64,000 nucleotides of DNA from a virus. Lineage: Duplodnaviria; Caudoviricetes. Below, piece after piece: positions 10,981 to 62,114 of the stretch. Position numbers and translations under genes: made by a program. Location of the stretch: positions 1 through 64,000 of the IMG/VR virus record IMGVR_UViG_3300043443_000360. The stretch is one strand, 5' to 3'. The notes below the pieces were generated by a model. The model was given only the letters and a program-made list of their open reading frames with translations, had not been told where the DNA came from and made no database searches. Each line of letters starts with the position of its first letter. Within the stretch, counting starts at the first letter, position 1.

Positions 10981-12147
10981 ATGAATAATTTTTTTACAAT
11001 TGATACTTTTCCTGAGTATATAGAATTAAAAAACAAACAAGGTAAGGTTGCTGGAGAAGATTTTACCCCACAAGTTTTTAAAAATCTTTTATCTTTTGAA
11101 GAATGGTCATATATCAAAAAAGAATTTGACGAAATGCCAGATAGCGAAATAGATGTTCAAGGGTATTCTGGATTAGGAACTTTAAATTTTAGTATGTTAA
11201 ATCGTGAAGAAACAATTGCTAAATTTGAAAAAATAGCAAGTGAGGCAGTTGGAGAAGAACTAGAAGTTTTAGATGCTGGTGGCACAAGATACAGCACTGA
11301 GTACGGATGGTATCCAAAACTCGCACCCCACTATGATGCAAGACCTACAGAGATATATATATTTGATTATCATGTGCAGTCTGATGAAGACTGGGGAGTT
11401 GTAGTTGAAGGTAAAACTTTTAATTTTTATGAAAATGAAGCATTGCTTTTTAGTGGCACTGGACAAGTTCATTGGCGAGAACAACTTAAATTAAAAGATA
11501 ATTCAAGAACAGATCTTATATTTTTTTGGATGCAGCATAAAAAGCCAAAATTAATTTCTAAACAACATTCAGATATTATGAAAGAAAGAACAAAGTTAAT
11601 TGTTGAGCATATTGAACCAATGCCAGGTTTAACCAAAGAAGATTGGTATAAACCAATTCAAATTTCAGATGCATCAGATAGATTTCCAGATTTCTTTAAA
11701 ATAAGTATTAACACTGGCAATCCTTTAAAACACAATACAGTGTATAGATCATGCCTACATCAAGACGCTATTGATAATTTTTATAACAATAAAACAATAT
11801 CAAAAGATTTAATTAATGATATTACAAGTTTAATGAAAAATATTTATACAGAACATAACATTGCTTTTATTGAAACAGAGTATATTAGTTATACAACAAA
11901 AAATAATAGGTATCAAAAAGAAAAATATAAAGATAATGATATAGTGAGTTTGGCCATAGTAATAAAATCAGATAATGAGTTAAATTTTATAATTGATGAA
12001 AAGGAATATAATGTTTCTTTGCAAAGCGGAATCGTTTTTTCTCCAACTAACCAAATTGTAGATATAAAGTTTGATTTATTTTTAGAAAATAATTCTATAG
12101 ATTTGCTATTTTTTAATTTTATTTTGGAGAAAGGTCAGAATGACTGA
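10981..12147 (+). CDS. 2OG-Fe(II) oxygenase-like protein with a degenerate second DSBH domain
   Basis: LAPHYD...FSGTGQVHWRE; C-terminal half repeats the fold without metal ligands. Confidence 0.7.
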   Translation: MNNFFTIDTFPEYIELKNKQGKVAGEDFTPQVFKNLLSFEEWSYIKKEFDEMPDSEIDVQGYSGLGTLNFSMLNREETIAKFEKIASEAVGEELEVLDAGGTRYSTEYGWYPKLAPHYDARPTEIYIFDYHVQSDEDWGVVVEGKTFNFYENEALLFSGTGQVHWREQLKLKDNSRTDLIFFWMQHKKPKLISKQHSDIMKERTKLIVEHIEPMPGLTKEDWYKPIQISDASDRFPDFFKISINTGNPLKHNTVYRSCLHQDAIDNFYNNKTISKDLINDITSLMKNIYTEHNIAFIETEYISYTTKNNRYQKEKYKDNDIVSLAIVIKSDNELNFIIDEKEYNVSLQSGIVFSPTNQIVDIKFDLFLENNSIDLLFFNFILEKGQND

Positions 12148-25245: not shown

Positions 25246-25318
25246 TGGACTGTAGTTCAGTTGGTAGAACACTCGACTGTTAATCGAGATGTCGCAGGAT
25301 CGAGACCTGCCAGTCCAG
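25246..25318 (+). tRNA. tRNA-Asn(GTT)
   Basis: Acceptor TGGACTG/CAGTCCA; anticodon arm CTCGA-CTGTTAA-TCGAG; atypical T-loop ATCGAGA; no encoded CCA. Confidence 0.9.
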
Positions 25319-25361
25319 CAAAGTGATATAATATACTTATATAGATTATAGGAGGCCACCA

Positions 25362-26147
25362 ATGGCAGCAAAAGGAACAAGAGAACTTCTTCTAGAAATT
25401 ATTCAGAAAGAAGTTGGAACCGTAGAAGGTCCAAAAGATAATGAAACAAAGTATGGTGCATACACAAAGGCAAACTTTTTACCATGGTGTGGATCATTTG
25501 TTAACTGGTCAGCAAATCAGGCTGGCATAAAGGTTCCAAACACAGTTTATACACCAGCAGGTGTAGCAGCATTTAAGAAGGCTGGTAAGTGGGTTCCAGT
25601 TAAAAACAATAAACCACAGCCAGGATGGGTAGTTTATTTTGATTTCCCAGGTGGAAGAGACATTGATCACGTTGGTTGGGTATTAAAGGACAATGGTGAT
25701 GGAACCGCTTGGTGTATTGAAGGAAATACATCTGCAGATGGTAAGAAGGGCTCCCAATCAAATGGTGGTGAATGTGCAAAGAAACTTCGTGCATATGGTC
25801 CAAATAAGAAGGGGCTTCCAGTATTTATTGCAGGGTACGGAGCAGTTGATTATCCAGATGCTCCAGTACAAGAAGTTAAAACACTTGAAGAAAAGAAGGT
25901 GGCACTTGCAGAAGTTGCAAAATCACAGGGTGTTGAAGTGCCAGCAGTCAAACTATTTAAGCCAATTAAAAAGGGTGCCAAGGGTCAGGCTGTTAAGAAT
26001 GTTCAGGCTCTACTTAAGATCAATGCTGATGGTGAGTTTGGTCCAGGAACTGAAAAGGCTGTTAAGGCTTTCCAAATTAAAGAAAAAATCAAGCCAACAG
26101 GCATTGTTGATGAAGAAACATTTCGTCGACTAAAGGGAGTAAAGTAA
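25362..26147 (+). CDS. Endolysin: CHAP domain + peptidoglycan-binding domain
   Basis: WCGSFV, DHVG, IEGN; DGEFGPGTEKAVKAFQ. Confidence 0.9.
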   Translation: MAAKGTRELLLEIIQKEVGTVEGPKDNETKYGAYTKANFLPWCGSFVNWSANQAGIKVPNTVYTPAGVAAFKKAGKWVPVKNNKPQPGWVVYFDFPGGRDIDHVGWVLKDNGDGTAWCIEGNTSADGKKGSQSNGGECAKKLRAYGPNKKGLPVFIAGYGAVDYPDAPVQEVKTLEEKKVALAEVAKSQGVEVPAVKLFKPIKKGAKGQAVKNVQALLKINADGEFGPGTEKAVKAFQIKEKIKPTGIVDEETFRRLKGVK

Positions 26148-31775: not shown

Positions 31776-32060
31776 ATGAAGAAGCATGAGTGGAAAGATA
31801 ATGCCCTGTGCTTAGACTATGACACAAACCTATTCTTTGATAAATATGAAGAAGATGAACTTCTAAGGCCAGCAATAGACAAACTTTGTTCAACATGTCC
31901 AATAAGCAAAAATTGTTTCGCTGTTGGAATTACTGGTAAAGAGTGGGGAGTATGGGGTGGTGTTTATCTTGAAGGTGGAGTTATCTCAAGAGAATTCAAC
32001 AAGCATAGAAAGAAAGAGGATTGGTGGAATACATGGAGCAGTCTAACTATGTCAGATTAA
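31776..32060 (+). CDS. whiB: WhiB-family Fe-S transcription factor
   Basis: W...ALC...FF...C..CP....C...WGVWGG. Confidence 0.92.
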   Translation: MKKHEWKDNALCLDYDTNLFFDKYEEDELLRPAIDKLCSTCPISKNCFAVGITGKEWGVWGGVYLEGGVISREFNKHRKKEDWWNTWSSLTMSD

Positions 32061-35866: not shown

Positions 35867-35937
35867 TTCCCCTTCGTATAACGGCAATACGCCACCCTTT
35901 GGAGGTGGTCATCGTGGTTCGAATCCATGAGGGGAAG
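35867..35937 (+). tRNA. tRNA-Gln(TTG)
   Basis: TTCCCCT/AGGGGAA acceptor; CCACC-CTTTGGA-GGTGG; GTTCGAATC. Confidence 0.92.
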
Positions 35938-36068
35938 CGCTAATATACATATTTTCTTGGTTTGTTTATCTCTTTTACTGCTTTTCTGATCCTATACCAG
36001 GTAATAATTTTTTTTATCATTTATCCATTATATCATTCTAATCTTACAGGGGTGGTATAATAATAGGT

Positions 36069-44230: not shown

Positions 44231-44839
44231 ATGAATAAATATCCAAACATTGCACAACGGCAACTCATAAATGCAAAAATTTATAGTAATAGGTGGGATT
44301 GGGCTGCCTCACTGCCTCGAGACTTGGATATTATTGAGGTTGGTGTAGGCTCTGGAGATTATTCGGAGCATATGATAAAAACAATTTCACCCAAAACTTT
44401 AACACTTATTGATCAATATGATCAGTCGGACCCATTTCTTGCCAGGCCAGGACAAAAGCCAAGATTTTATGAAAATGATCATTATAATTTTATTCAAAAT
44501 AAATTTAAAGAATATAAAAACGTAAAGATAATTAAGGATAATTCCGTTAGAGCATTGCCAGAATTAATTAAAACGGGGAAAAGGTTTGATATGATATATG
44601 TTGATGCATCTCATCACTATAAAGATGTATCTCAAGACATCTTAAATGCAAGCAGCCTGCTAAAAGATAGTGGAATTCTTGCTATAAATGATTATGTATA
44701 TGATGTAGAATATGAGCAGTATGGTGTCATACAAGCCACAAATGAGTTTTTGTATAATAATTCAGATTGGTATGTTATTGGTTTTGCTTTAGAAGAAAGA
44801 ATGATGGCTGATATTTACTTGTCTAAGCACCCCCAGTAG
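44231..44839 (+). CDS. Class I SAM methyltransferase, paralogue of 41759
   Basis: IEVGVGSG, DMIYVDASH, NDY; shares QL.NAKI and NEFL..N.DW. Confidence 0.85.
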   Translation: MNKYPNIAQRQLINAKIYSNRWDWAASLPRDLDIIEVGVGSGDYSEHMIKTISPKTLTLIDQYDQSDPFLARPGQKPRFYENDHYNFIQNKFKEYKNVKIIKDNSVRALPELIKTGKRFDMIYVDASHHYKDVSQDILNASSLLKDSGILAINDYVYDVEYEQYGVIQATNEFLYNNSDWYVIGFALEERMMADIYLSKHPQ

Positions 44840-44899
44840 GATTCGAACCTACGGCTTACTGCTTAGAAGGCAGTTACTCTTCCGCTGAGTTATGGAGGT
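44828..44899 (-). tRNA. tRNA-Arg(TCT)
   Basis: ACTGC-CTTCTAA-GCAGT; GTTCGAATC. Confidence 0.92.
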
Positions 44900-44903
44900 A
44901 AAG

Positions 44904-44975
44904 TAGCCCCAACGGGAATCGAACCCGTCTTGCCAGATTGAAAATCTGGAGTCCTAACCGATAGACGATGGAGCC
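44904..44975 (-). tRNA. tRNA-Glu(TTC)
   Basis: CCAGA-TTTTCAA-TCTGG; GTTCGATTC. Confidence 0.92.
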
Positions 44976-45090
44976 AGGACCTAACTTTATTTGCGTCCTA
45001 GTTAGGCTTAGGTATAGAGATGGTGCACCATTCTATAAAGGCTATATGATCGACGCTTTCACGTTACAGGGATAGTTCCTTACGCTTATG

Positions 45091-45161
45091 CAGAGTCTCT
45101 AGGAGTCGAACCTAGGCTTACCGCTTTGGAGACGGTAGTGCTTCCGTAACACTTAGACCCT
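45091..45161 (-). tRNA. tRNA-Trp(CCA)
   Basis: ACCGT-CTCCAAA-GCGGT; GTTCGACTC. Confidence 0.9.
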
Positions 45162-45331
45162 AAATGCCAACCACGACTTTGATTCTTAATCTAAACCATC
45201 CGTTGGCTGTTATACCTAGTTCTCGCTTCATCATCTGATCCATGAGCCTGAACGCTTTCATCAAACGGCTGGAACACGGTAAGTTTCGGTATAACTATCT
45301 TTGTATAGATTGTTCAGATCTATACTCCGAG

Positions 45332-45402
45332 AGCGGATGATGAGAATCGAACTCACCCCTTCTGCTTGGAAGGCAGAGGCACTACCAATATGCAACATCC
45401 GC
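45332..45402 (-). tRNA. tRNA-Gly(TCC)
   Basis: GCGGATG/CATCCGC; TCTGC-CTTCCAA-GCAGA. Confidence 0.92.
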
Positions 45403-45424
45403 AATACTCTATTTAATTATATCG

Positions 45425-45498
45425 TACACCAGGTAGGACTTGAACCTACGATAACCGAATTATGAGTTCGGGGCCTTGACCAACTTGGCTACTGGTGC
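45425..45498 (-). tRNA. tRNA with CAT anticodon (elongator Met or Ile2)
   Basis: CCGAA-CTCATAA-TTCGG; lacks initiator features. Confidence 0.88.
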
Positions 45499-53835: not shown

Positions 53836-54302
53836 TAGTCAAAGTACCCTTCTGCCCATAGGCCTTGCATAAAACTAATTGCTTTTAATAATCCCTCAAC
53901 CATAGGGTCTTTATCTACATAGGTAACATTAGAGTTTCTAATATAAAACAATTTAGCATCATGAACAGAATTGATCATTTCATCTAAGTCGTCTACTGTA
54001 TAGCCTAACATTATTCTACCTCTATTCCTGCATACTTAGCAATAGTGTTTAGTGTAGTATGTATATGGCAGTCGCAGTCTTCTCCACCCATATTGGCTTC
54101 AAATTCTAGATGAGAATAATTATCCTCATATATTTCATTAATTAGGTCATTTACTGTGTTTGGATATGTTGTTTGGGTCATGTATTAATTCTACAGCCCC
54201 AGGAAATTAATGTCAAGTACGTAATAAGATTTGGGGAAAAATCTTATGTGATCTTAATCACAAGCCCGAGAAAATCTCAACTCGGGGCCCCATTTACGCT
54301 TG

Positions 54303-54376
54303 CGATCACGAAGGGACTCGAACCCTCGACCTCCACCGTGACAGGGTGGCGTTCTAACCAACTGAACTACGTGACC
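54303..54376 (-). tRNA. tRNA-Asp(GTC)
   Basis: CCACC-CTGTCAC-GGTGG; GTTCGAGTC. Confidence 0.93.
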
Positions 54377-54379
54377 AAG

Positions 54380-54408
54380 TGAGCAGTTTTACATCATGCT
54401 CAGGATGT
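54380..54408 (-). ncRNA. Repeated H-type pseudoknot, copy 1
   Basis: ACAUC-cUGAGCAu-GAUGU-AAAAC-UGCUCA. Confidence 0.7.
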
Positions 54409-54437
54409 TGCGTTTCTGACGTCGCAAATTTATTTTA

Positions 54438-55460
54438 TCATGCTAATTGCATAACATTCTGTACAACTTTGAGCAGACGATTCTTTTCTGCGTTAATTGC
54501 AGGGTCAAAACCGCTTGCGCTTGCAAGAATTGATTCGTTAGAACCACCACGAGCAGAACGATACCAATCAAGGCGTTCTGTAAGTGCATTGAAAGCACCC
54601 CAAGCATTACCAGCAATCATACCATTAAATTCACCAGTGTAGATATCGTTAATGGTGTCAATTTTATTTTCCCACTTCTTTAGCGCACCCTTAGAATCTT
54701 TCTCAGGCTTTGCATAAGCAGCAAGAATAATATCGTTGAATTGCTTAGCGGTGACTTCTTTCTCGAACATAGCCTTAGCCATGATGTCGAATTCGTCCAT
54801 GTACGCATTAGCAAGACCAAGAGTCTCACGTGCAATCTGAATCTTACCCTCAGCAGTCTGAGTGTGACGAATCTTGAATGATTGCTTGATACCCTTATTC
54901 TTCTTACGACCTATGCCACCAAGAGCAAGATTAAGAGTGTTAGCGCATACAACACGAACAGGTGTAATGCTTGCTTGAATAGCAATCGAACCATCGTGTG
55001 ATGTGTTGATGAGCAAATAAGTTTTTACCTTATCTGCAACACCGCTAGGGTCTAGAACTGTCTCACGCTCAAGAGCAAGAGAGCCAAATACTACACGCCC
55101 ACCCTTGATTGCGCCAGCAGTCTCCCAGCGACCACCACCGTCAAGAATGTTATCACCAAATGAAAATAAATCTTCATTTTGTAGGGGTACATAACGCTCA
55201 CCAACAATTCCAAGAATGTCAGTTTGAGTTTTATCTGTAGGGTTAGTACGCAATACGTACTGATATGATTTATCACTTGTTAAATGGGTAGGGGTCTCTA
55301 AATCTTCCAGACGAACATTCCAACCATTGAGGTTTGCAGCCTCTAGCATTTCGCTTGTTGTTTTTTCTTCTGTAAAGACAGTACCCAATCCATGCCAAGC
55401 AGGTTCACGGAAAGAAGCGAAAGAGGTTTTTCCGTTTTGTGTTTCTAGGTCATGTGCCAT
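54438..55460 (-). CDS. DUF932 / TIGR03299-type phage-plasmid protein
   Basis: PAWHGLG, QNE..F, ETAG...GGR.VF, NTSHDGS, TPVRVVCANTL, RHT. Confidence 0.9.
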   Translation of the reverse strand: MAHDLETQNGKTSFASFREPAWHGLGTVFTEEKTTSEMLEAANLNGWNVRLEDLETPTHLTSDKSYQYVLRTNPTDKTQTDILGIVGERYVPLQNEDLFSFGDNILDGGGRWETAGAIKGGRVVFGSLALERETVLDPSGVADKVKTYLLINTSHDGSIAIQASITPVRVVCANTLNLALGGIGRKKNKGIKQSFKIRHTQTAEGKIQIARETLGLANAYMDEFDIMAKAMFEKEVTAKQFNDIILAAYAKPEKDSKGALKKWENKIDTINDIYTGEFNGMIAGNAWGAFNALTERLDWYRSARGGSNESILASASGFDPAINAEKNRLLKVVQNVMQLA

Positions 55461-55635
55461 GAGTTTTTCTCCTTTTTGTTGTTGATAGTTTAATTTTACA
55501 CTGTGGGTCTGACAATGTCAAATAGTGTACGTAATCATGGGGCAAATCGGACATTTTCTTAAGGTGATCTTAAACACATGTGATATTGATCACGCCCCCC
55601 GAGCCGCATATTTATGCAGTGCAGTGAATAAAAAA

Positions 55636-55696
55636 TGAGCAGTTTACGTGGCCGTGCTCAGGGCCCTTATCCAGTTTAGAGACATGTGACAGGTCT
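55636..55696 (-). ncRNA. Two tandem pseudoknot copies (variant 55668-55696 and copy 2 at 55636-55665)
   Basis: AGAC-cUGUCACAu-GUCU-CUAAAC-UGGAUA; GGCC-cUGAGCAc-GGCC-ACGUAAAC-UGCUCA. Confidence 0.65.
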
Positions 55697-55711
55697 ATTA
55701 GTAGCCCCCTA

Positions 55712-56140
55712 CTAAATATCGATTCTGTCAACACTGGCGCTGAGCCATGTGATGTAGTCATCGTTGTACTGAATGGTTTCGAAGTCAATATTGTTTACAA
55801 TATCTTCTGCATCTTCATCATGAGGTACCTGCATTGTTATGCTGTAAGTTACGGTAACCTCTGCTTCAATTTCTTTAGTTAATTCAAATCCACAAATGTC
55901 TGCAATCTCTTCTGCTTGTGTAGTTGAAAGAACATCGTCACGTAGTGCATCCATGGTCCACTCGTGCATGGAATCACGCATTCTCTGCATCTCTGCATTA
56001 ATTGCATATGAGCGCTGTAGATTATCTGATGAGCGGTCCTGCAGTGAAATAATCATCGCATCCTTTTTCTCAATTGCTTCCTGCAATGCAGCAATCTGTC
56101 GATTAAGGAATTCCGCTGTTGCTATTACTGATTGGTCCAT
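55712..56140 (-). CDS. Early-region coiled-coil/acidic protein
   Basis: Own TTGACA-17-TATACT promoter. Confidence 0.7.
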   Translation of the reverse strand: MDQSVIATAEFLNRQIAALQEAIEKKDAMIISLQDRSSDNLQRSYAINAEMQRMRDSMHEWTMDALRDDVLSTTQAEEIADICGFELTKEIEAEVTVTYSITMQVPHDEDAEDIVNNIDFETIQYNDDYITWLSASVDRIDI

Positions 56141-56323
56141 GGGGGCCTGCTTTCTGTTAGTTTGTTTACTTAAGTATACTGGTGGCCACTGACAATGTCA
56201 AGGACCCCCGTAGGGGTGAGTTCTTACTTACGACATTAGGCGAGATACTCACGAAACTGCCTCTGTTTCGATCCCCCCAGGGGACTTTCGCAGAAAATCT
56301 GCCTTGAACGCAGGGGAGAAAAT

Positions 56324-56354
56324 TGAGCAGTTTATACTGACTTACTCAGGTCAG
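56324..56354 (-). ncRNA. Repeated pseudoknot, copy 3
   Basis: CUGAC-cUGAGUAa-GUCAG-UAUAAAC-UGCUCA. Confidence 0.7.
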
Positions 56355-56363
56355 AATATCTAA

Positions 56364-56765
56364 TTAAAGATACTGAGCGATAGTCTTGAAAGTTGTAGCA
56401 TTTACAACTTCCTCGTCCGTCATTTTGAGAATACGAATTGCATTTTCAATTTCTGAAACTTCATAGCGACCAAGTTCTTGTTCAAGGTCAAGTTCAGGCT
56501 TCTTTGGCAATTTGATTTCATTAGCAGGAATTGTGAAACTAGCAGATACTTCTCCACGCCAATTCTCATGTGCAGAAACCTCTGCCTTGTTAATTTGCTT
56601 GACGATAAGTTCTGCAACTTCCTTAGCCCACGCCTTTTCTACCTTCTCGTAGTCCTTGCGCTTCTTTTCGTTGTTAGTAATTGCCTTTGCACTATTTGTA
56701 AGTTTGTCTTCAAGTGCCTTGATTACTTTTGCTGTTGATACTTTAACTGAGATTGCTCTAGCCAT
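56364..56765 (-). CDS. Early-region hypothetical protein
   Basis: SD AAGGA; highly biased codons. Confidence 0.75.
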   Translation of the reverse strand: MARAISVKVSTAKVIKALEDKLTNSAKAITNNEKKRKDYEKVEKAWAKEVAELIVKQINKAEVSAHENWRGEVSASFTIPANEIKLPKKPELDLEQELGRYEVSEIENAIRILKMTDEEVVNATTFKTIAQYL

Positions 56766-56798
56766 TGGGTTTTCCTTTTCTGTTAGTTGGGGGTATGT

Positions 56799-56830
56799 TG
56801 AGCAGTTTAATTATCTCATGCTCAGGAGAT
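56799..56830 (-). ncRNA. Repeated pseudoknot, copy 4
   Basis: AUCUC-cUGAGCAu-GAGAU-AAUUAAAC-UGCUCA. Confidence 0.7.
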
Positions 56831-56839
56831 TTAGTCAAT

Positions 56840-57007
56840 TTACTTTGCTGTCCAAGTTGTATAACGAGGTGTGCCATTTACATCTAACTTAACACGAACG
56901 CTCTGTCCGTCCTTGTTAGGTGTGATTTCAAGAATTGTTCCTGTAACCTTTGACTTCTGTGTTGTGTAGGTGTCGCCTACCTTGTATGTTGCTGTTGCTA
57001 CTGACAT
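56840..57007 (-). CDS. Small SH3/KOW-like protein (not in ORF track)
   Basis: MSVATATYKVGDTYTTQKSKVTGTI..., 55 aa, SD AAGGAG, own promoter. Confidence 0.7.
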   Translation of the reverse strand: MSVATATYKVGDTYTTQKSKVTGTILEITPNKDGQSVRVKLDVNGTPRYTTWTAK

Positions 57008-57102
57008 TTTTTCTCCTTTGTTAGTTGTTGTTTGTTATATTTAATTTTAGCATTTTTGAGATTTCTCGTCAAGTTATTTTTGAGATTTCTCATATTTTGA
57101 GA

Positions 57103-57273
57103 TTATTTAGAGGTCTTGACCATAGCAAGACGGCGTGAGCCATTTGCCAAAACCAAAGAAACTCTGGTAACCTTATTAGACATTGGTGTAAAGTCTGCAA
57201 TACGACCTGTAACGCCTGTCTTAGATGTAGTGAATAAATCACCAATCTGATATGTGTAACCTGAGATAGTCAT
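57103..57273 (-). CDS. Small SH3/KOW-like protein, paralogue of 56840 (not in ORF track)
   Basis: MTISGYTYQIGDLFTTSKTGVTGRI..., 56 aa, SD AAGGA, own promoter. Confidence 0.7.
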   Translation of the reverse strand: MTISGYTYQIGDLFTTSKTGVTGRIADFTPMSNKVTRVSLVLANGSRRLAMVKTSK

Positions 57274-57500
57274 TGGGGACTTCCTTTCTGTTTGGGTATA
57301 ATATAATTATAGAGTAAAAATCTCAAAAATACCAATCCAAATGACATTTTCCAGTGTGATAAACCCCACATCTTAACAGCGTGTTCTTAACTTGACAAAA
57401 CCATCTTTGGCCCCCCGAGCCCTTTCTGATCATGGCGGGGGATTTATTGCAACAAGAATAAATAAAATAACCAAAGTAAAATAAACGCAAAGGTTTTCAT

Positions 57501-58235
57501 TTATTTTTTACTAGCGCTAAATACGATATCACTTTTAGAGTATACACATAGCGAACAAGAAACACAAGCGGACCCTGCAGTGCTAATAAGTGGAATTGCT
57601 TTTTTATTTTCAGGACACTTAGCGCCAGGCTTTCCAATCATTTCTTTCATATCTGCTTGGCCTATTGCAAAATTCTTAGCAAGATATGCAAGGCGTACGC
57701 CATGATTATTTTTTAACTCTACGCCAGTTTTCACATTGGCACTATCTGTAGAATAATATAAAGATAGGTTAGGGATATCCTTTAGGATGAGTGCAGCAGA
57801 TTTTACACGAGTGTATACCCAGAATTGAATGTCAGGGTTTTCATTGATTACATTCTTCCATGCATATGTATAGAAATCATTAAAGAAATCTCCGTCCCAG
57901 TGAATGCGGAAGAGCATAGGGGCGTCTTTCTTTACACAATCAGTTTTAAACTCTGCAATCATTTCTGAAAGTAGAGTGTACATTGTTTCCATATCTGCAT
58001 TGCGTAGCAATTCCCAGTTATGCAATAGATTAACTTTTACGGTTGGGAATATCTTTTCCAATTTGCCTGCATAGCAAACAGTCTCACAGACAGACGTTGC
58101 GCCAGGACATGAATAATTTTTTCCTGCGGGTAGTCCGAAGGTGTTAGCAATTGCGGCCTGCTTTCCATTTTTTGTGACAAGATTAGCAACCTTTCTATCG
58201 TTAGAGCGCTTAAGTTTAAGTGTATTAGTAGTCAA
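57501..58235 (-). CDS. Gp88-like Cys-cluster (radical-SAM-like) protein
   Basis: FGLPA...CPGA...C...CYA, FRIHWDGDF, FWVYT, CP...C..C..C. Confidence 0.75.
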   Translation of the reverse strand: MTTNTLKLKRSNDRKVANLVTKNGKQAAIANTFGLPAGKNYSCPGATSVCETVCYAGKLEKIFPTVKVNLLHNWELLRNADMETMYTLLSEMIAEFKTDCVKKDAPMLFRIHWDGDFFNDFYTYAWKNVINENPDIQFWVYTRVKSAALILKDIPNLSLYYSTDSANVKTGVELKNNHGVRLAYLAKNFAIGQADMKEMIGKPGAKCPENKKAIPLISTAGSACVSCSLCVYSKSDIVFSASKK

Positions 58236-58654
58236 GGCCTAGGCTCATTTCTAGAGCAGCGTCTTCATGAGAATAAGAATTTGCTAATTCATCTAGCCAG
58301 CAGTGCTCACACATAGGCATAAATTCATCGCACTGATTTTCTTTGCATTTTGGGCAGATACCTGCATAGTATTCATCCATGAATTCATCATTTTCATATT
58401 TCATTAGGGGGTCTCCTTTTGTTCTTTAGATAAGTCTAGCATTTTTCTAGTGCTTTGTCTATTTCTTTTATATTGTTTTTTTGAAGGCACGGCAGAGGCA
58501 GCGTTAGATCTGCGTAATTCTTGCAGTCTACGTAATTCCTCTGGTGTCTTTTTCATAACTTAATACTAGCAAACATGGCTAAAAATGTCAATTTCTTAAA
58601 TGTGATCAATCTCACAAAACGGCTCGGGCCCCATTTATGCAGGGCAGTGAATAA

Positions 58655-58882
58655 TTATTCGTCTTCGTCATCAACTGGTACATACCAATTGAATGTAGCG
58701 TAGTCATCAACTTCAATTAAATCTTCTTCATCATAGTTATCTAAATACATTATTACATAACCATCTGCAAGTGGTGTGATACCAACTACCTGAACAATCT
58801 CACCATTAACTGAAATATAATCGTCAATCTCTAACTGATCGACATTGAGTACATCTACTTTTTTAAATTCCATATTCAACAT
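58655..58882 (-). CDS. Small acidic beta protein
   Basis: ORF chain. Confidence 0.55.
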   Translation of the reverse strand: MLNMEFKKVDVLNVDQLEIDDYISVNGEIVQVVGITPLADGYVIMYLDNYDEEDLIEVDDYATFNWYVPVDDEDE

Positions 58883-58895
58883 TGTAGCACCCATT

Positions 58896-59192
58896 TTATT
58901 CCCCTAAGCAATCAAAGCATTCGCAGTCAATACCATGAGGCAACCAAGCATCTAGGTGGTGAGCCTCAACGATAGCGTGTGCAGGTGCGTATTCTTCTCC
59001 ACGCCAAAATACTCCGTCTGGAAGTTTAATTGGCTGGTCATAGTCTTCTTCCCAATATGCATCTATGGCAGCAATACAAGGCTGAACCATTGACTTAGGG
59101 ACTGGAGGATAGTGATTAGCAACCAAGTGCATTTCAATACTACTTTCAAGGTCTAGAATGGAAGCAAGTTCCTGCGCTGTTGTGTATCCCAT
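58896..59192 (-). CDS. Hypothetical protein
   Basis: HL..NHYPP...EAHHL motif. Confidence 0.7.
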   Translation of the reverse strand: MGYTTAQELASILDLESSIEMHLVANHYPPVPKSMVQPCIAAIDAYWEEDYDQPIKLPDGVFWRGEEYAPAHAIVEAHHLDAWLPHGIDCECFDCLGE

Positions 59193-59194
59193 TA

Positions 59195-59410
59195 TTATTT
59201 TCCTCCTACATTTCCATTACGATAAAATATCTTAGTGTGCATCTTACCTGACGGCTCAGACAAGTTAATTGTGCGATAGTTATTAGCATCGCCAAAGTCA
59301 ATAAACTTATTAAATACATCTACTGCATCAAGTGCGTTATCATAGCGACCAACCCATTCAGGGCTAGTAGCGTTATCGTTAGTGCTAGTTACTGCGTATA
59401 GGTATTCCAT
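59195..59410 (-). CDS. Hypothetical protein
   Basis: Coupled ORF. Confidence 0.6.
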   Translation of the reverse strand: MEYLYAVTSTNDNATSPEWVGRYDNALDAVDVFNKFIDFGDANNYRTINLSEPSGKMHTKIFYRNGNVGGK

Positions 59411-59686
59411 TAGTCATTCTCCTTAGTGATAAATAATTGGTGAGGGTTGCAATCGCAACTTTCTGTATCATAGTCTATACCATTTCCAAAAAATAACCAA
59501 CCTGTGCCATAGCATAAATCGCAAGTAGTTATTTCTGCAACTAGTTCTTTCATCTTAGCCATTAGATAGCCCCTTCCTGAAATAAGCCTATTTCTAAATC
59601 TAGCAATTCGCTAGGTGTAGCATTAGATAAATCTACCCAACCTGCGCCGTCATTGTCAATTCTAAAAATTTCTACATATCCCATTA

Positions 59687-59902
59687 TTATTCACCAACCT
59701 TTACTGCAACTGTACGATAAGTTCTGCGACCAAAATTATTGTAGCCACTATTAGGTGCAACCTCAACAAGATAAGTTTCGCAACCCTCATACCAAACTGC
59801 GTGAGGGTGTTCCTCTGCTGATACAATTTCACCTTGCAAGGTGCGTGAGTAGTAATTAGTTCCTACAAGTAGGTCTTTAATTGAATATACATTTGCGGAC
59901 AT
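59687..59902 (-). CDS. Hypothetical protein
   Basis: SD AAGGAG, promoter upstream. Confidence 0.65.
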   Translation of the reverse strand: MSANVYSIKDLLVGTNYYSRTLQGEIVSAEEHPHAVWYEGCETYLVEVAPNSGYNNFGRRTYRTVAVKVGE

Positions 59903-60164
59903 TCAGTTCTCCTTTCAAGAGACTTTCATTAACTGATATAAATATCTTACACTATGTGGCTGACATTTTCAATTCGACACGCCGTAAGTGTTCAATATTT
60001 ATTTTTTCTTACTATGTAAGTCTAGCCTATTACTCATAAAATATCAACTTACTAGCGAGTATTCTTAAATAGTGAGACGCTCAAAGTCTGTGATAAAAAT
60101 CACATCGTACGTAAGGTTTTCCACAGCCTGTGGATAACTGCTCGGGCCATTTTAGTTGAAATTT

Positions 60165-60192
60165 CAAGCAGTTTTAGATCGTGCTCAGGATT
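60165..60192 (-). ncRNA. Repeated pseudoknot, copy 5 (weaker)
   Basis: aAUC-cUGAGCAc-GAUc-UAAAAC-UGCUUG. Confidence 0.6.
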
Positions 60193-60198
60193 CCTATT

Positions 60199-60345
60199 TT
60201 ATAGTTTTAGTTTTTCTTCTAATTCAATTATGTATTTATCTTTATAGTAAATCGTTACCATTGAATAAATTAACATTAGCATTGAAGCAAGCAACGCAAT
60301 TATTACAGCCCACACAGTCCATAAATCGAAATAGTATGTGTTCAT
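60199..60345 (-). CDS. Small membrane protein (not in ORF track)
   Basis: 48 aa, one TM helix, TAATG coupling. Confidence 0.5.
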   Translation of the reverse strand: MNTYYFDLWTVWAVIIALLASMLMLIYSMVTIYYKDKYIIELEEKLKL

Positions 60346-60518
60346 TATTTGTTACACGCCTCTCTAAACTTTTCAAAATCAAAATTAGCATTATCAGCAG
60401 AGAATAAATCTCCAAACTCATTTACCAAATCTTCAAAAGCAATTTCATGAATTACATCAGAGAATTGGCTAAGAATATCAGCAACAGCGACAAAAGTTTT
60501 TCTTGTGTATGTAGACAT
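60345..60518 (-). CDS. Hypothetical protein
   Basis: TRK.F..VA...DN..FD.EKF..AC motif. Confidence 0.65.
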   Translation of the reverse strand: MSTYTRKTFVAVADILSQFSDVIHEIAFEDLVNEFGDLFSADNANFDFEKFREACNK

Positions 60519-60703: not shown

Positions 60704-61075
60704 TTTGACTACCTTTCATTTTAAGTGATAAGACTATCCTATCACGGGGGTCTGACAAATTAGGGCATTTATTTGCTAGGCTCACTGTGATTTACACCAC
60801 ATTTATTTGCTAGGCTCACTGCCTTATTTATCTTTATTTAATTTTATAGTAGTAATACTAGCATAGAAATCTCAAAAAGTCAAGACGACACGCCGTAACT
60901 TAACTGTGTTTTAAGTCACAACATAAAGGGTGCAAAACGGACATTTCGCCTCGGGCCGCTTTTAGCGGTTTTTTATTTTATTTTTTCTAAAATCTTTTCT
61001 AATTCTTTTAGTTGTTCTAAATTAAGATGATCTAAATTAATTGCATCGCTAAATCCAAATAAATCTTTTTCCATT

Positions 61076-61856: not shown

Positions 61857-62114
61857 TTTAGACCACCTTTCATTTTTATTAAGTTTACTTCTTTTTCAAC
61901 TTTCTATACATAGAAGTCTAACATAGGGGTCTGACATTTTTAGGGGTACAAAACGGACATAAGGGATATATGGGATTGTGAGGTACATCATGTGGATAAC
62001 TTGAGCGTAAATACGTAGTGTGATGTGCGTCATGTGGATAACTGCCCGAGTCGATGTCCCAAATGTCCGATTTATCCTGTGACATAGATAACATGCGACA
62101 CGCCGTGCTAAGGC

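Follow-up and report, generated by a model that had tools for sequence, protein, structure and literature searches.

Six short repeats lie among the early genes of a freshwater phage, which raises the question of whether they are copies of one structured RNA and, if so, what such an RNA may do behind genes. The window analyzed here is a 64,000-nt stretch of a viral record of 98,493 bp. The original prediction was that the repeats form a six-copy family of H-type RNA pseudoknots with a fully covarying stem, placed just after stop codons. This observation is confirmed. The accompanying interpretation is supported only in part, as its structural reading holds and can be extended, whereas its list of possible functions could be judged only from placement and genomic context.

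Six pseudoknot copies among the early genes

All six elements are located where they had been placed, on the minus (sense) strand (Table 1). A strict pattern (loop heptamer, 4-12 nt, AAAC plus the first four stem-2 bases) gives 5 matches in the window, against 0.00 expected from 100 shuffles, and 5 reverse and 0 forward matches in the whole record. A looser descriptor, which fixes only the C-G closing pair, the loop C, and AAAC and merely requires both stems to pair, returns exactly six hits in the genome, all on the minus strand, against 0.10 in simulated genomes (the last hit spans 60165-60191/2). The stem-1 sequences, the G-U wobbles in stem 2, and the compensated variant with a bulged A are as originally described. 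One small correction is that stem 1 is not fully covarying. Its loop-closing C-G pair is the same in all six copies, and the outer one or two pairs are often absent. Four of the five sites are followed only by the next sigma-70-like promoter or by tRNA-Asp.

Table 1. Pseudoknot copies and neighboring features. Bit scores of pseudoknots are from a covariance model of the family; stop distances are to the loop-closing C.
Position	Strand	Feature	Structure	Context	Score or support
54302..54376	-	tRNA-Asp (GTC)		5' end (RNase P site) 3 nt after copy 1	ARAGORN; Rfam tRNA 69.8 bits
54380..54408	-	Pseudoknot copy 1	Stem 1, 5 bp; stem 2, 6 bp	After the DUF932 gene, 30-33 nt after its tandem stops; ends 3 nt before tRNA-Asp	48.9 bits, E = 3e-12
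54435..54440	-	Tandem stop codons (TGA, TAA) of the DUF932 gene		Upstream of copy 1	DUF932, E = 1.4e-44
55627..55635	-	U-tract, terminator-like	Six U, then A, U, U	Directly after copy 2, upstream of the next promoter	
55636..55665	-	Pseudoknot copy 2	Stem 1, 4 bp, all G-C	Second of a tandem pair	28.7 bits; tandem pair conserved in four related contigs
55668..55696	-	Variant pseudoknot copy	Stem 1, 4 bp; stem 2 changed at two pairs in a compensating way, one bulged A	First of the tandem pair; 18 nt after a stop	9.4 bits (weak in the sequence-based model); found only with the stem-2 sequence left free; conserved together with copy 2 in related contigs L476, L479, L480, and L482
55712..55714	-	TAG stop of the 142-aa gene		Upstream of the variant copy	
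56324..56354	-	Pseudoknot copy	Stem 1, 5 bp; one U-G wobble in stem 2	13 nt after the stop of the 133-aa gene, end of an operon	30.6 bits
56364..56366	-	TAA stop of the 133-aa gene			
56799..56830	-	Pseudoknot copy	Stem 1, 5 bp	13 nt after the stop of a 55-aa gene, 33 nt before the next start codon, inside an operon	35.5 bits
56840..56842	-	TAA stop of the 55-aa gene			
60165..60192	-	Pseudoknot copy	Stem 1, 3 bp; two G-U wobbles in stem 2	9 nt after the stop of a 48-aa gene, end of an operon	36.2 bits
60199..60201	-	TAA stop of the 48-aa gene			

Covariation and placement across the family

The element is a 27-32-nt H-type pseudoknot. Stem 1 has 3-6 bp of any sequence, most often 4, and is closed by a C-G pair, which was also present in 103 of 136 matches to a pattern that did not require it. 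Loop 1 is a single C. Stem 2 has 6 bp, commonly UGAGCA paired with UGCUCA, one junction nucleotide follows, and loop 3 is A-rich and ends in AAAC. Both stems covary in hundreds of copies from unrelated viral contigs and from genomes of more than 15 phyla. In stem 1, the three inner pairs are 100% paired with 3-4 pair types in 65 copies, and the covariation score is 0.373 against 0.131 in shuffles and at most 0.09 with slid partners. In stem 2, which covaries at four pairs, C-G changes to U-A at pair 14-28, where C/U is 78/24 when the partner is G and 22/72 when it is A (p = 8e-14). A-U changes to G-C at another pair, and at pair 12-30 G/A is 94/4 when the partner is C. Some copies carry an extra base pair, and inserted base pairs and other compensated stem-2 types number 24, against 1 in simulation.

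The family is very widespread in phages and mobile elements of many bacterial phyla. It also occurs in Methanobrevibacter MAG contigs and in chromosomal Saccharibacteria loci without phage genes. The upstream genes are diverse and share no protein family, although they include the anti-restriction and leading-region set: DUF932, DUF3768, ArdA, ArdC-like, SSB, and Lar.

Three rules of placement emerged. First, the distance from the stop codon to the loop-closing C has a sharp floor at 8 nt, which is also the commonest value. Distances of 0-6 nt occur 7 times in total, 7 nt 6 times, 8 nt 52 times, 9 nt 37 times, and 10 nt 28 times, and then the counts decay. This puts stem 1 at about +11/+12 when the stop codon is in the A site, such that at 8 nt the knot abuts a terminating ribosome. 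By contrast, the gap to the downstream start codon is broad. Second, a same-strand tRNA begins 2-12 nt after the knot in 27 of 439 copies, including copy 1 at 3 nt, 16 of them at 2-4 nt and for nine tRNA species, whereas only 2 knots sit directly after a tRNA. Third, a U-tract (at least 5 U in the first 8 nt) follows 22 of 104 copies (21%), against 2 of 104 at a control offset. In addition, the next gene is convergent in 35 cases, half of which keep a stop spacing of 7-14 nt.

Comparison with described RNA elements

The element matches no named Rfam family, and we found no paper that reports the motif. Its closest relatives are the coremin motif (xrRNA-C) and its Watson-Crick variant (xrRNA-WCC) of plant, fungal, and picorna-like RNA viruses (PMC6546385, PMC10520033, PMC10321173). 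The knot resembles the coremin/xrRNA element without meeting its definition. Shared with these are a short first hairpin of 3-5 bp of free sequence with a pyrimidine-purine (C-G) closing pair, a C as first loop base, pairing between loop and linker, an A-rich loop predicted to lie in the stem-1 minor groove, and the occurrence of tandem copies. Coremin has a conserved 8-10 nt spacer with essential AAA, CU, and AC. In the phage element, AAAC followed by U is invariant or nearly so, so AAACU is shared, while the rest of the spacer is the stem-2 strand and covaries. An antiparallel Watson-Crick stem 2 supported by compensating changes is a feature of xrRNA-WCC that is found here, and the GAG/CUC core of its stem 2 is contained in the phage stem 2, which however has 6 bp rather than 3. 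The phage loop has 8 nt (C, six stem-2 bases starting U-G, then one free base) and does not follow the YGAD or YGNNAD loops with 0-3 pairs, as only the leading pyrimidine agrees. The second hairpin required for Xrn1 resistance of coremin is absent in general, since the downstream 30 nt fold at a mean of -2.45 kcal/mol against -2.19 for shuffles and 12% reach -5 kcal/mol or lower in both sets. The exception is the 27 copies followed by a tRNA. Moreover, the hosts are bacteria and archaea, which lack Xrn1, and the element is placed by distance from stop codons.

Recoding pseudoknots, such as the BWYV/luteovirus and SRV-1 frameshifters and the MuLV read-through knot (PMC10321173), are also compact H-type folds with a 1-nt loop 1 and an A-rich loop 3 that start 4-9 nt after the A-site codon. 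However, no slippery heptamer was found in 194 canonical copies, and the median number of open codons after the stop is 8 in the read-through frame, 7 in the -1 frame, and 5 in the +1 frame. The element follows ordinary stop codons of unrelated genes and also precedes tRNAs.

The STAXI motif (RF01728; PMC2864571) is likewise a small, repeated pseudoknot near SSB, anti-restriction, and integrase-type genes of mobile elements. It is a 153-position array of two or three units with UUCG loops in Enterobacterales, and its Rfam model gave no match at E up to 10 in the region or in the whole genome. An IncI leading region held neither STAXI nor this knot. The preQ1-I riboswitch (RF00522) resembles the element in size (about 30-34 nt), in a 5-bp stem 1, in an A-rich tail, and in a loop-to-tail stem 2, but there was no Rfam match in the region at E up to 10, and the one-nucleotide junction leaves no obvious ligand pocket. 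The preQ1-I riboswitch is located in the 5' leader of queuosine or transport genes, whereas the copies follow unrelated genes and often end operons. A ligand-binding riboswitch, one of the original suggestions, is unlikely, as the element is multi-copy, lies after stop codons, often ends an operon, and has unrelated downstream genes. A mimic of type III antitoxin RNA is rejected, because the copies are dispersed over 5.8 kb after different genes rather than forming tandem 36-nt arrays, and no ToxN match was found in the genome, although the control genomes also gave none. A tRNA-like acceptor arm of the TYMV type, in which the 3' strand of stem 2 is followed by a discriminator base plus CCA, is not supported either. 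A-CCA follows 22 of 439 copies (5% against 1.6% background), an enrichment no greater than for other pyrimidine-rich triplets.

Two further systems offer partial analogies. In the MALAT1/MEN-beta transcripts, an A-rich triple-helical structure sits immediately upstream of an RNase P cleavage site, and cleavage leaves a protected 3' end with almost no overhang. That system is eukaryotic, much larger, and of a different fold, and the analogy applies only to the roughly 6% of copies that precede tRNAs. T7 RNase III sites and REP elements near stop codons are multi-copy structured elements right after genes in polycistronic RNA that set segment stability, but these are plain hairpins that depend on a specific host nuclease or are species-specific, whereas this is a pseudoknot shared across phyla.

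Possible functions at gene ends

Of the functions originally proposed, an exonuclease block or a processing boundary fits the placement data best, and nothing links the element to host shut-off. Our preferred reading, held tentatively and without RNA-end data for this phage, is a protein-independent cap at the 3' end of the upstream cistron. It rests on the spacing from stop codons, the tRNAs and U-tracts downstream, the copies facing convergent genes, and the spread of the family, which makes a dedicated partner protein unlikely. Several facts speak against it. Experiments on coremin and its Watson-Crick variant show a block to 5'-to-3' enzymes and ribosomes, not to 3' exonucleases (PMC6546385, PMC10321173). 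About 38 copies appear to lie in 5' leaders with no same-strand gene upstream, including a conserved Saccharibacteria leader, and a 3' cap does not explain them. Operon-start and operon-end cases are equally frequent (38 and 35) with our crude gene calls, and only 21% of copies have a U-tract. Each stem alone is weak, at -2 to -7 kcal/mol in nested folding, so any barrier must rest on a tertiary structure that remains hypothetical. Within tRNA arrays, a 3' cap would hinder trimming of the upstream tRNA.

The main rival, which we consider possible but less likely, is a true prokaryotic xrRNA that blocks 5'-to-3' enzymes (RNase J in Actinobacteria, Firmicutes, and archaea) and so protects the downstream tRNA, cistron, or leader. 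The architecture and the AAACU linker are shared with coremin and its Watson-Crick variant, which stall Xrn1 (PMC6546385, PMC10321173), and a flaviviral xrRNA also stops bacterial RNase J1, so such blocks do not depend on the enzyme (PMC5760640). Knots hug the 5' end of tRNAs, where the acceptor stem could stand in for the second hairpin of coremin, and the 5'-leader cases fit. The host is probably an actinobacterium, as suggested by a WhiB gene, and this group has RNase J. On the other hand, that second hairpin is generally missing, the spacing is gauged from the upstream stop codon and not from the downstream gene, most copies in the window have only a promoter downstream, and half of the knots facing a convergent gene keep the canonical stop spacing. 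Frameshifter pseudoknots without further features do not resist Xrn1 (PMC10321173).

A ribosome-directed element is unlikely. In this view, the knot either tunes termination and recycling or stops post-termination ribosomes from sliding on, and thereby insulates neighboring cistrons from translational coupling. The floor at 8 nt has the same geometry as the 5-9 nt spacer of -1 frameshift stimulators. Coremin stalls scanning ribosomes and drives -1 frameshifting, including in an E. coli colony screen (PMC10520033, PMC10321173), and many copies sit in short gaps, 15-35 nt before the next start codon. However, copies also occur far from any stop codon (such as copy 1), in front of tRNAs, at operon ends before convergent genes, and in tandem pairs, and neither slippery heptamers nor extended frames were found.

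Two readings are more doubtful still. A transcription terminator or pause signal for the host RNA polymerase at the ends of early operons would agree with the enrichment of U-tracts, with the six U after copy 2, and with the lack of a canonical terminator on the sense strand of the early operons. Nevertheless, 79% of copies lack a U-tract, one copy lies inside an operon, copies directly before tRNAs must be transcribed through, and stem 2 is short and only half G-C. An intrinsic terminator has a stable G+C-rich hairpin directly followed by a U-tract, and a consensus scan called no terminator at any copy. A recognition site for a protein, either a processing nuclease, as with the RNase III sites between T7 early genes, or a translational regulator, would agree with the highly conserved loop and stem-2 nucleotides (C, U, G at the start and A at the end, plus AAAC) and with several copies in an early region. 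It is weakened by the presence of the family in more than 15 phyla, in Methanobrevibacter MAG contigs, and in chromosomal loci without phage genes, by the lack of a shared protein family, and by the free covariation of stem 2 at four pairs. A DNA-level or single-stranded-DNA element, acting as a recombination or cassette boundary for mobile accessory genes in the way proposed for STAXI or T4 PeSL cassettes, is very unlikely, since, although the upstream genes are of the anti-restriction set and each small gene carries its own copy, the element is strictly on the sense strand (253 same/same against 15 opposite/opposite), G-U wobbles are common in stem 2, and spacing rules from stop codons and from tRNA 5' ends make sense only on RNA.

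The analysis therefore establishes the fold, its selection on the sense strand, and its wide, uncatalogued distribution in phages and mobile elements, while any function, including nuclease resistance, is inferred. In the preferred model, the knot would act without a dedicated protein as a compact mechanical cap that defines and shields the 3' end of the cistron in front of it. It would be set as close to the stop codon as a terminating ribosome allows, such that translation never has to melt it and no naked RNA is left between ribosome and knot. On its 3' side, the RNA would be ended by RNase P where a tRNA follows 2-4 nt later (copy 1), by termination at a U-tract (copy 2), or by trimming back from downstream cuts. 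The knot, with its minor-groove A-rich loop, would then stop 3'-to-5' exonucleases (PNPase in an actinobacterial host) and stabilize the upstream early message, and the same fold may also stop enzymes coming from the 5' side.

Genomic setting and support for the pseudoknot fold

The minus strand of positions 54200-60400 carries an array of small genes, and each unit is driven by a strong sigma-70-like promoter. The record is a 98.5-kb IMG/VR contig that has been seen in freshwater metagenomes of eight studies, and a search of GenBank phages returned no near match to the region and no close relative. Because the genome encodes a WhiB-like protein and a DUF932 protein 53% identical to those of Streptomyces phages, an actinobacterial host is likely. 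The DUF932 region of Streptomyces phage Riptide was examined and has no knot.

The original prediction of six pseudoknot copies holds. The strict motif occurs five times, all on the minus strand, against 0 expected. A descriptor that fixes only the C-G closing pair, the loop C, and AAAC, and requires both stems to pair, returned exactly the six predicted elements, including the variant, against 0.10 per simulated genome. A covariance model was built from 65 foreign and window copies, and it scored the five main copies at 28.7-48.9 bits. Two further weak hits of this model are chance, because their stem 2 cannot pair.

The fold is supported by independent homologues. A pattern scan of IMG/VR recovered more than 117 contigs. 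Of 155 matches, 139 had a stem 1 of at least 3 bp, and most were in the same register. In an ungapped alignment of 65 copies, the three inner stem-1 pairs are always paired; two of them use three or four pair types, and the loop-closing pair is constant C-G. The outer two pairs are paired in 77% and 45% of copies. The covariation score is 0.373, against 0.131 for shuffles and at most 0.09 for slid partners.

Stem 2 was fixed by that first pattern and was therefore tested separately. With G at position 28, the partner is C 78 times and U 24 times, whereas with A at position 28 it is C 22 times and U 72 times (Fisher p = 8e-14). With C at position 30, the partner is G 94 times and A 4 times. A scan of 3.97 Mb of retrieved loci that ignored the stem-2 sequence found 361 distinct knots, of which 24 had further compensated stem-2 types, including 7-bp versions with an inserted pair, whereas simulated sequence gave 1. 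The stem-2 type of the variant copy is confined to relatives of this phage. The geometry is that of a classical compact H-type pseudoknot, with a 1-nt loop 1 (C), a 6-bp stem 2, a 1-nt junction (U 55%, A 33%), and a loop 3 of 0-3 nt plus AAAC. Nested-only folding recovers one stem at a time and gives weak energies of -2 to -7 kcal/mol.

Distribution and gene context

A scan of one genome per prokaryotic species returned at least 120 matches, of which 101 have a paired stem 1. They come from Saccharibacteria (many hits), Bacteroidota, Firmicutes, Actinomycetes, Chloroflexi, Omnitrophota, Cyanobacteria, Alpha- and Betaproteobacteria, and two Methanobrevibacter MAG contigs. Most of these look like prophage or mobile DNA. 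However, one Saccharibacteria locus lies between a carboxypeptidase gene and HIT/ValRS genes, in the leader of a small conserved gene. Among 116 genes that end just before a knot, Pfam recognises DUF932 (16), DUF3768 (4), DUF7249 (3), ArdA, SSB, Lar, DUF2958, and DUF4192, and the archaeal-MAG copy precedes an ArdC-like gene. This is the anti-restriction, early-entry gene set.

No catalogued family or published description of the motif was found. An Rfam scan of the window at the gathering threshold, and a scan of 54200-60400 at E up to 10, found only tRNAs and chance hits. The STAXI model (RF01728) had no match in the genome, and an E. coli IncI leading region, examined as an example of STAXI, held neither STAXI nor this knot. 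In the literature, searches for the motif string returned only primers and siRNAs, and concept searches found no phage report. A genome-language-model preprint that appeared relevant does not describe the motif.

Features of the window and of retrieved loci (handles beginning with L denote the retrieved loci)
Sequence and position	Strand	Feature	Observation
Window 56201	-	Sigma-70-like promoter	TTGACA-17-TATACT
Window 55521, 54216, 58591	-	Sigma-70-like promoters	
Window 54248-54291, 55580-55603, 57409-57419, 58602-58632, 60090-60148, 60950-60957, 62044-62050	-	Recurring early-promoter cassette	G/C element of the GGCCCGAG type, found in either orientation, then a perfect TGTGA-N6-TCACA palindrome, the CRP/FNR-type consensus (five copies, all between 53.6 and 60.1 kb), then a near-consensus sigma-70 promoter; may be an operator for a phage or host regulator
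Window 25543-25565, 11007-11031		Weak covariance-model hits	
Window 31791-31964	+	WhiB-like gene	42 bits, above the Pfam cut-off; points to an actinobacterial host for this low-G+C freshwater phage
Window 56843-57273	-	Two adjacent small genes of 56 and 55 aa	Paralogues (41% identity, E = 5e-10); each has its own promoter, and only the second is followed by a knot
Window 57504-58235	-	Cysteine-rich 244-aa early protein	Widespread but uncharacterised family phrog_1392 (E = 4e-95)
Window 44827-45498 (-), 25246-25319 (+), 35867-35938 (+)	as listed	Seven further tRNA genes	Arg, Glu, Trp, Gly, Met in one cluster, plus Asn and Gln; none is preceded by a knot
L153:3746-3830 (Saccharibacteria MAG); same arrangement in L123, L165, L202		Chromosomal copy of the knot in the leader of a small conserved gene	A possible 14-codon upstream ORF ends with its stop codon inside loop 3, and a GGGAGG ribosome-binding site lies 13 nt after the knot; the differences between the MAGs fall in one codon (Ala/Val)
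L142:377-402 and L174:1893-1918 (Methanobrevibacter MAG contigs)		Well-formed knots followed by a T-run	37 nt upstream of an ArdC-like/M78 peptidase gene; if the binning is right, the family reaches archaeal mobile elements
L058:3671-3706, L058:3324-3345, L103:1973-2008, L017:11355-11376, L090:2936-2971		Knot sub-type	Linker reads AAAAGG instead of AAACUG, so stem 2 has 5 bp
L102:6624-6674, L039:9986-10029		Knots with junction-loop insertions	Insertions include a small hairpin
L104:11045-11088		Knot with an insertion in loop 3	

Placement relative to stop codons and tRNAs

The distance from the last base of the stop codon to the loop-closing C was measured in 439 knots. Distances of 0-6 nt occur 7 times in total, 7 nt 6 times, 8 nt 52, 9 nt 37, 10 nt 28, 11 nt 15, 12 nt 22, 13 nt 15, and 14 nt 14, followed by a long tail. 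As stem 1 is free in sequence, it could easily contain a stop codon, and the floor is therefore functional. With the stop codon in the A site, stem 1 begins at about +11 to +12, where the mRNA entrance of the ribosome lies, and this is the same spacing as in -1 frameshift signals. All three stop codons are used. In contrast, the gap to the next start codon is broad (median 78 nt), with a shoulder at 15-35 nt.

In 27 knots, a same-strand tRNA starts 2-12 nt downstream, 16 of them at 2-4 nt. Fifteen belong to the conserved DUF932-knot-tRNA-Asp arrangement of relatives of this phage, and twelve involve other tRNAs (Thr, Tyr, Arg, Lys, Leu, Glu, Ser, Asn), whereas only two knots sit directly after a tRNA. 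A U-tract follows 22 of 104 knots, against 2 of 104 at a control offset, and the first roughly 8 nt after the knot are G-poor. The knot is co-oriented with its neighbours, with 253 same/same against 15 opposite/opposite cases. Counts of operon-start and operon-end positions, made with a crude ORF-based gene caller, were 38 and 35.

Possible functions of the knot

In the window, four of the five sites end a transcription unit, and downstream of them lie only a promoter cassette or tRNA-Asp. The spacing is gauged from the upstream gene, and half of the knots that face a convergent gene keep that spacing. Where a tRNA follows, RNase P would leave the knot with a 2-4 nt tail, which is too short for 3' exonucleases such as PNPase and RNase R to grip. 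This arrangement recalls the MALAT1 triple helix. We therefore tentatively favour a protein-independent cap for the 3' end of the upstream cistron. The analysis establishes that the RNA folds, whereas each step beyond folding, including processing and protection from nucleases, is inferred.

The main rival, which we consider less likely, is a 5'-to-3' block, as in coremin. The knot shares with coremin the C-G-closed hairpin, the leading loop C, AAACU, and a loop-to-linker stem containing GAG/CUC. Moreover, a flaviviral xrRNA stops RNase J1, and the knots in 5' leaders fit this reading better. However, the second hairpin that coremin needs is absent and the loop consensus does not match, and the knot is therefore not a coremin member by definition. 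An even less likely role as a ribosome-directed insulator would explain the floor, but not the tRNA-adjacent copies or those far from any stop codon. Terminator, protein-site, and DNA-level readings are weaker. The interpretation in the original prediction is supported in part: the pseudoknot is confirmed, but riboswitch and antitoxin readings fail direct tests, as do recoding and tRNA-mimic readings. A search for ToxN found none, although the control genomes also gave none, and a tRNA-like ACCA end is not specifically enriched.

A further possibility, far-reaching but doubtful, is that the knot is a self-sufficient mechanical roadblock RNA, in effect a prokaryotic xrRNA. In this view, one 27-nt fold would be shared, by descent or by convergence, among phages of bacteria and archaea, mobile elements, giant viruses, and eukaryotic RNA viruses (coremin). 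It would halt exonucleases and ribosomes without any protein, and its distance from stop codons would be set by the footprint of the terminating ribosome, so that it delimits and stabilises individual cistrons within long transcripts.

A 27-nt portable element that stabilises or insulates a cistron in many hosts would be a useful part for synthetic operons, and the spacing floor gives an in-genome measure of how far the terminating ribosome reaches along its mRNA. The knot follows anti-restriction and other first-expressed genes, and it may therefore matter for how fast counter-defence proteins accumulate after DNA entry. If it is a protein-free barrier, it would be the first exonuclease- or ribosome-blocking RNA fold described for DNA phages and prokaryotic mobile elements, and an extremely common, overlooked punctuation mark of phage transcripts. 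It would also link phage RNA biology to the xrRNAs of eukaryotic viruses.
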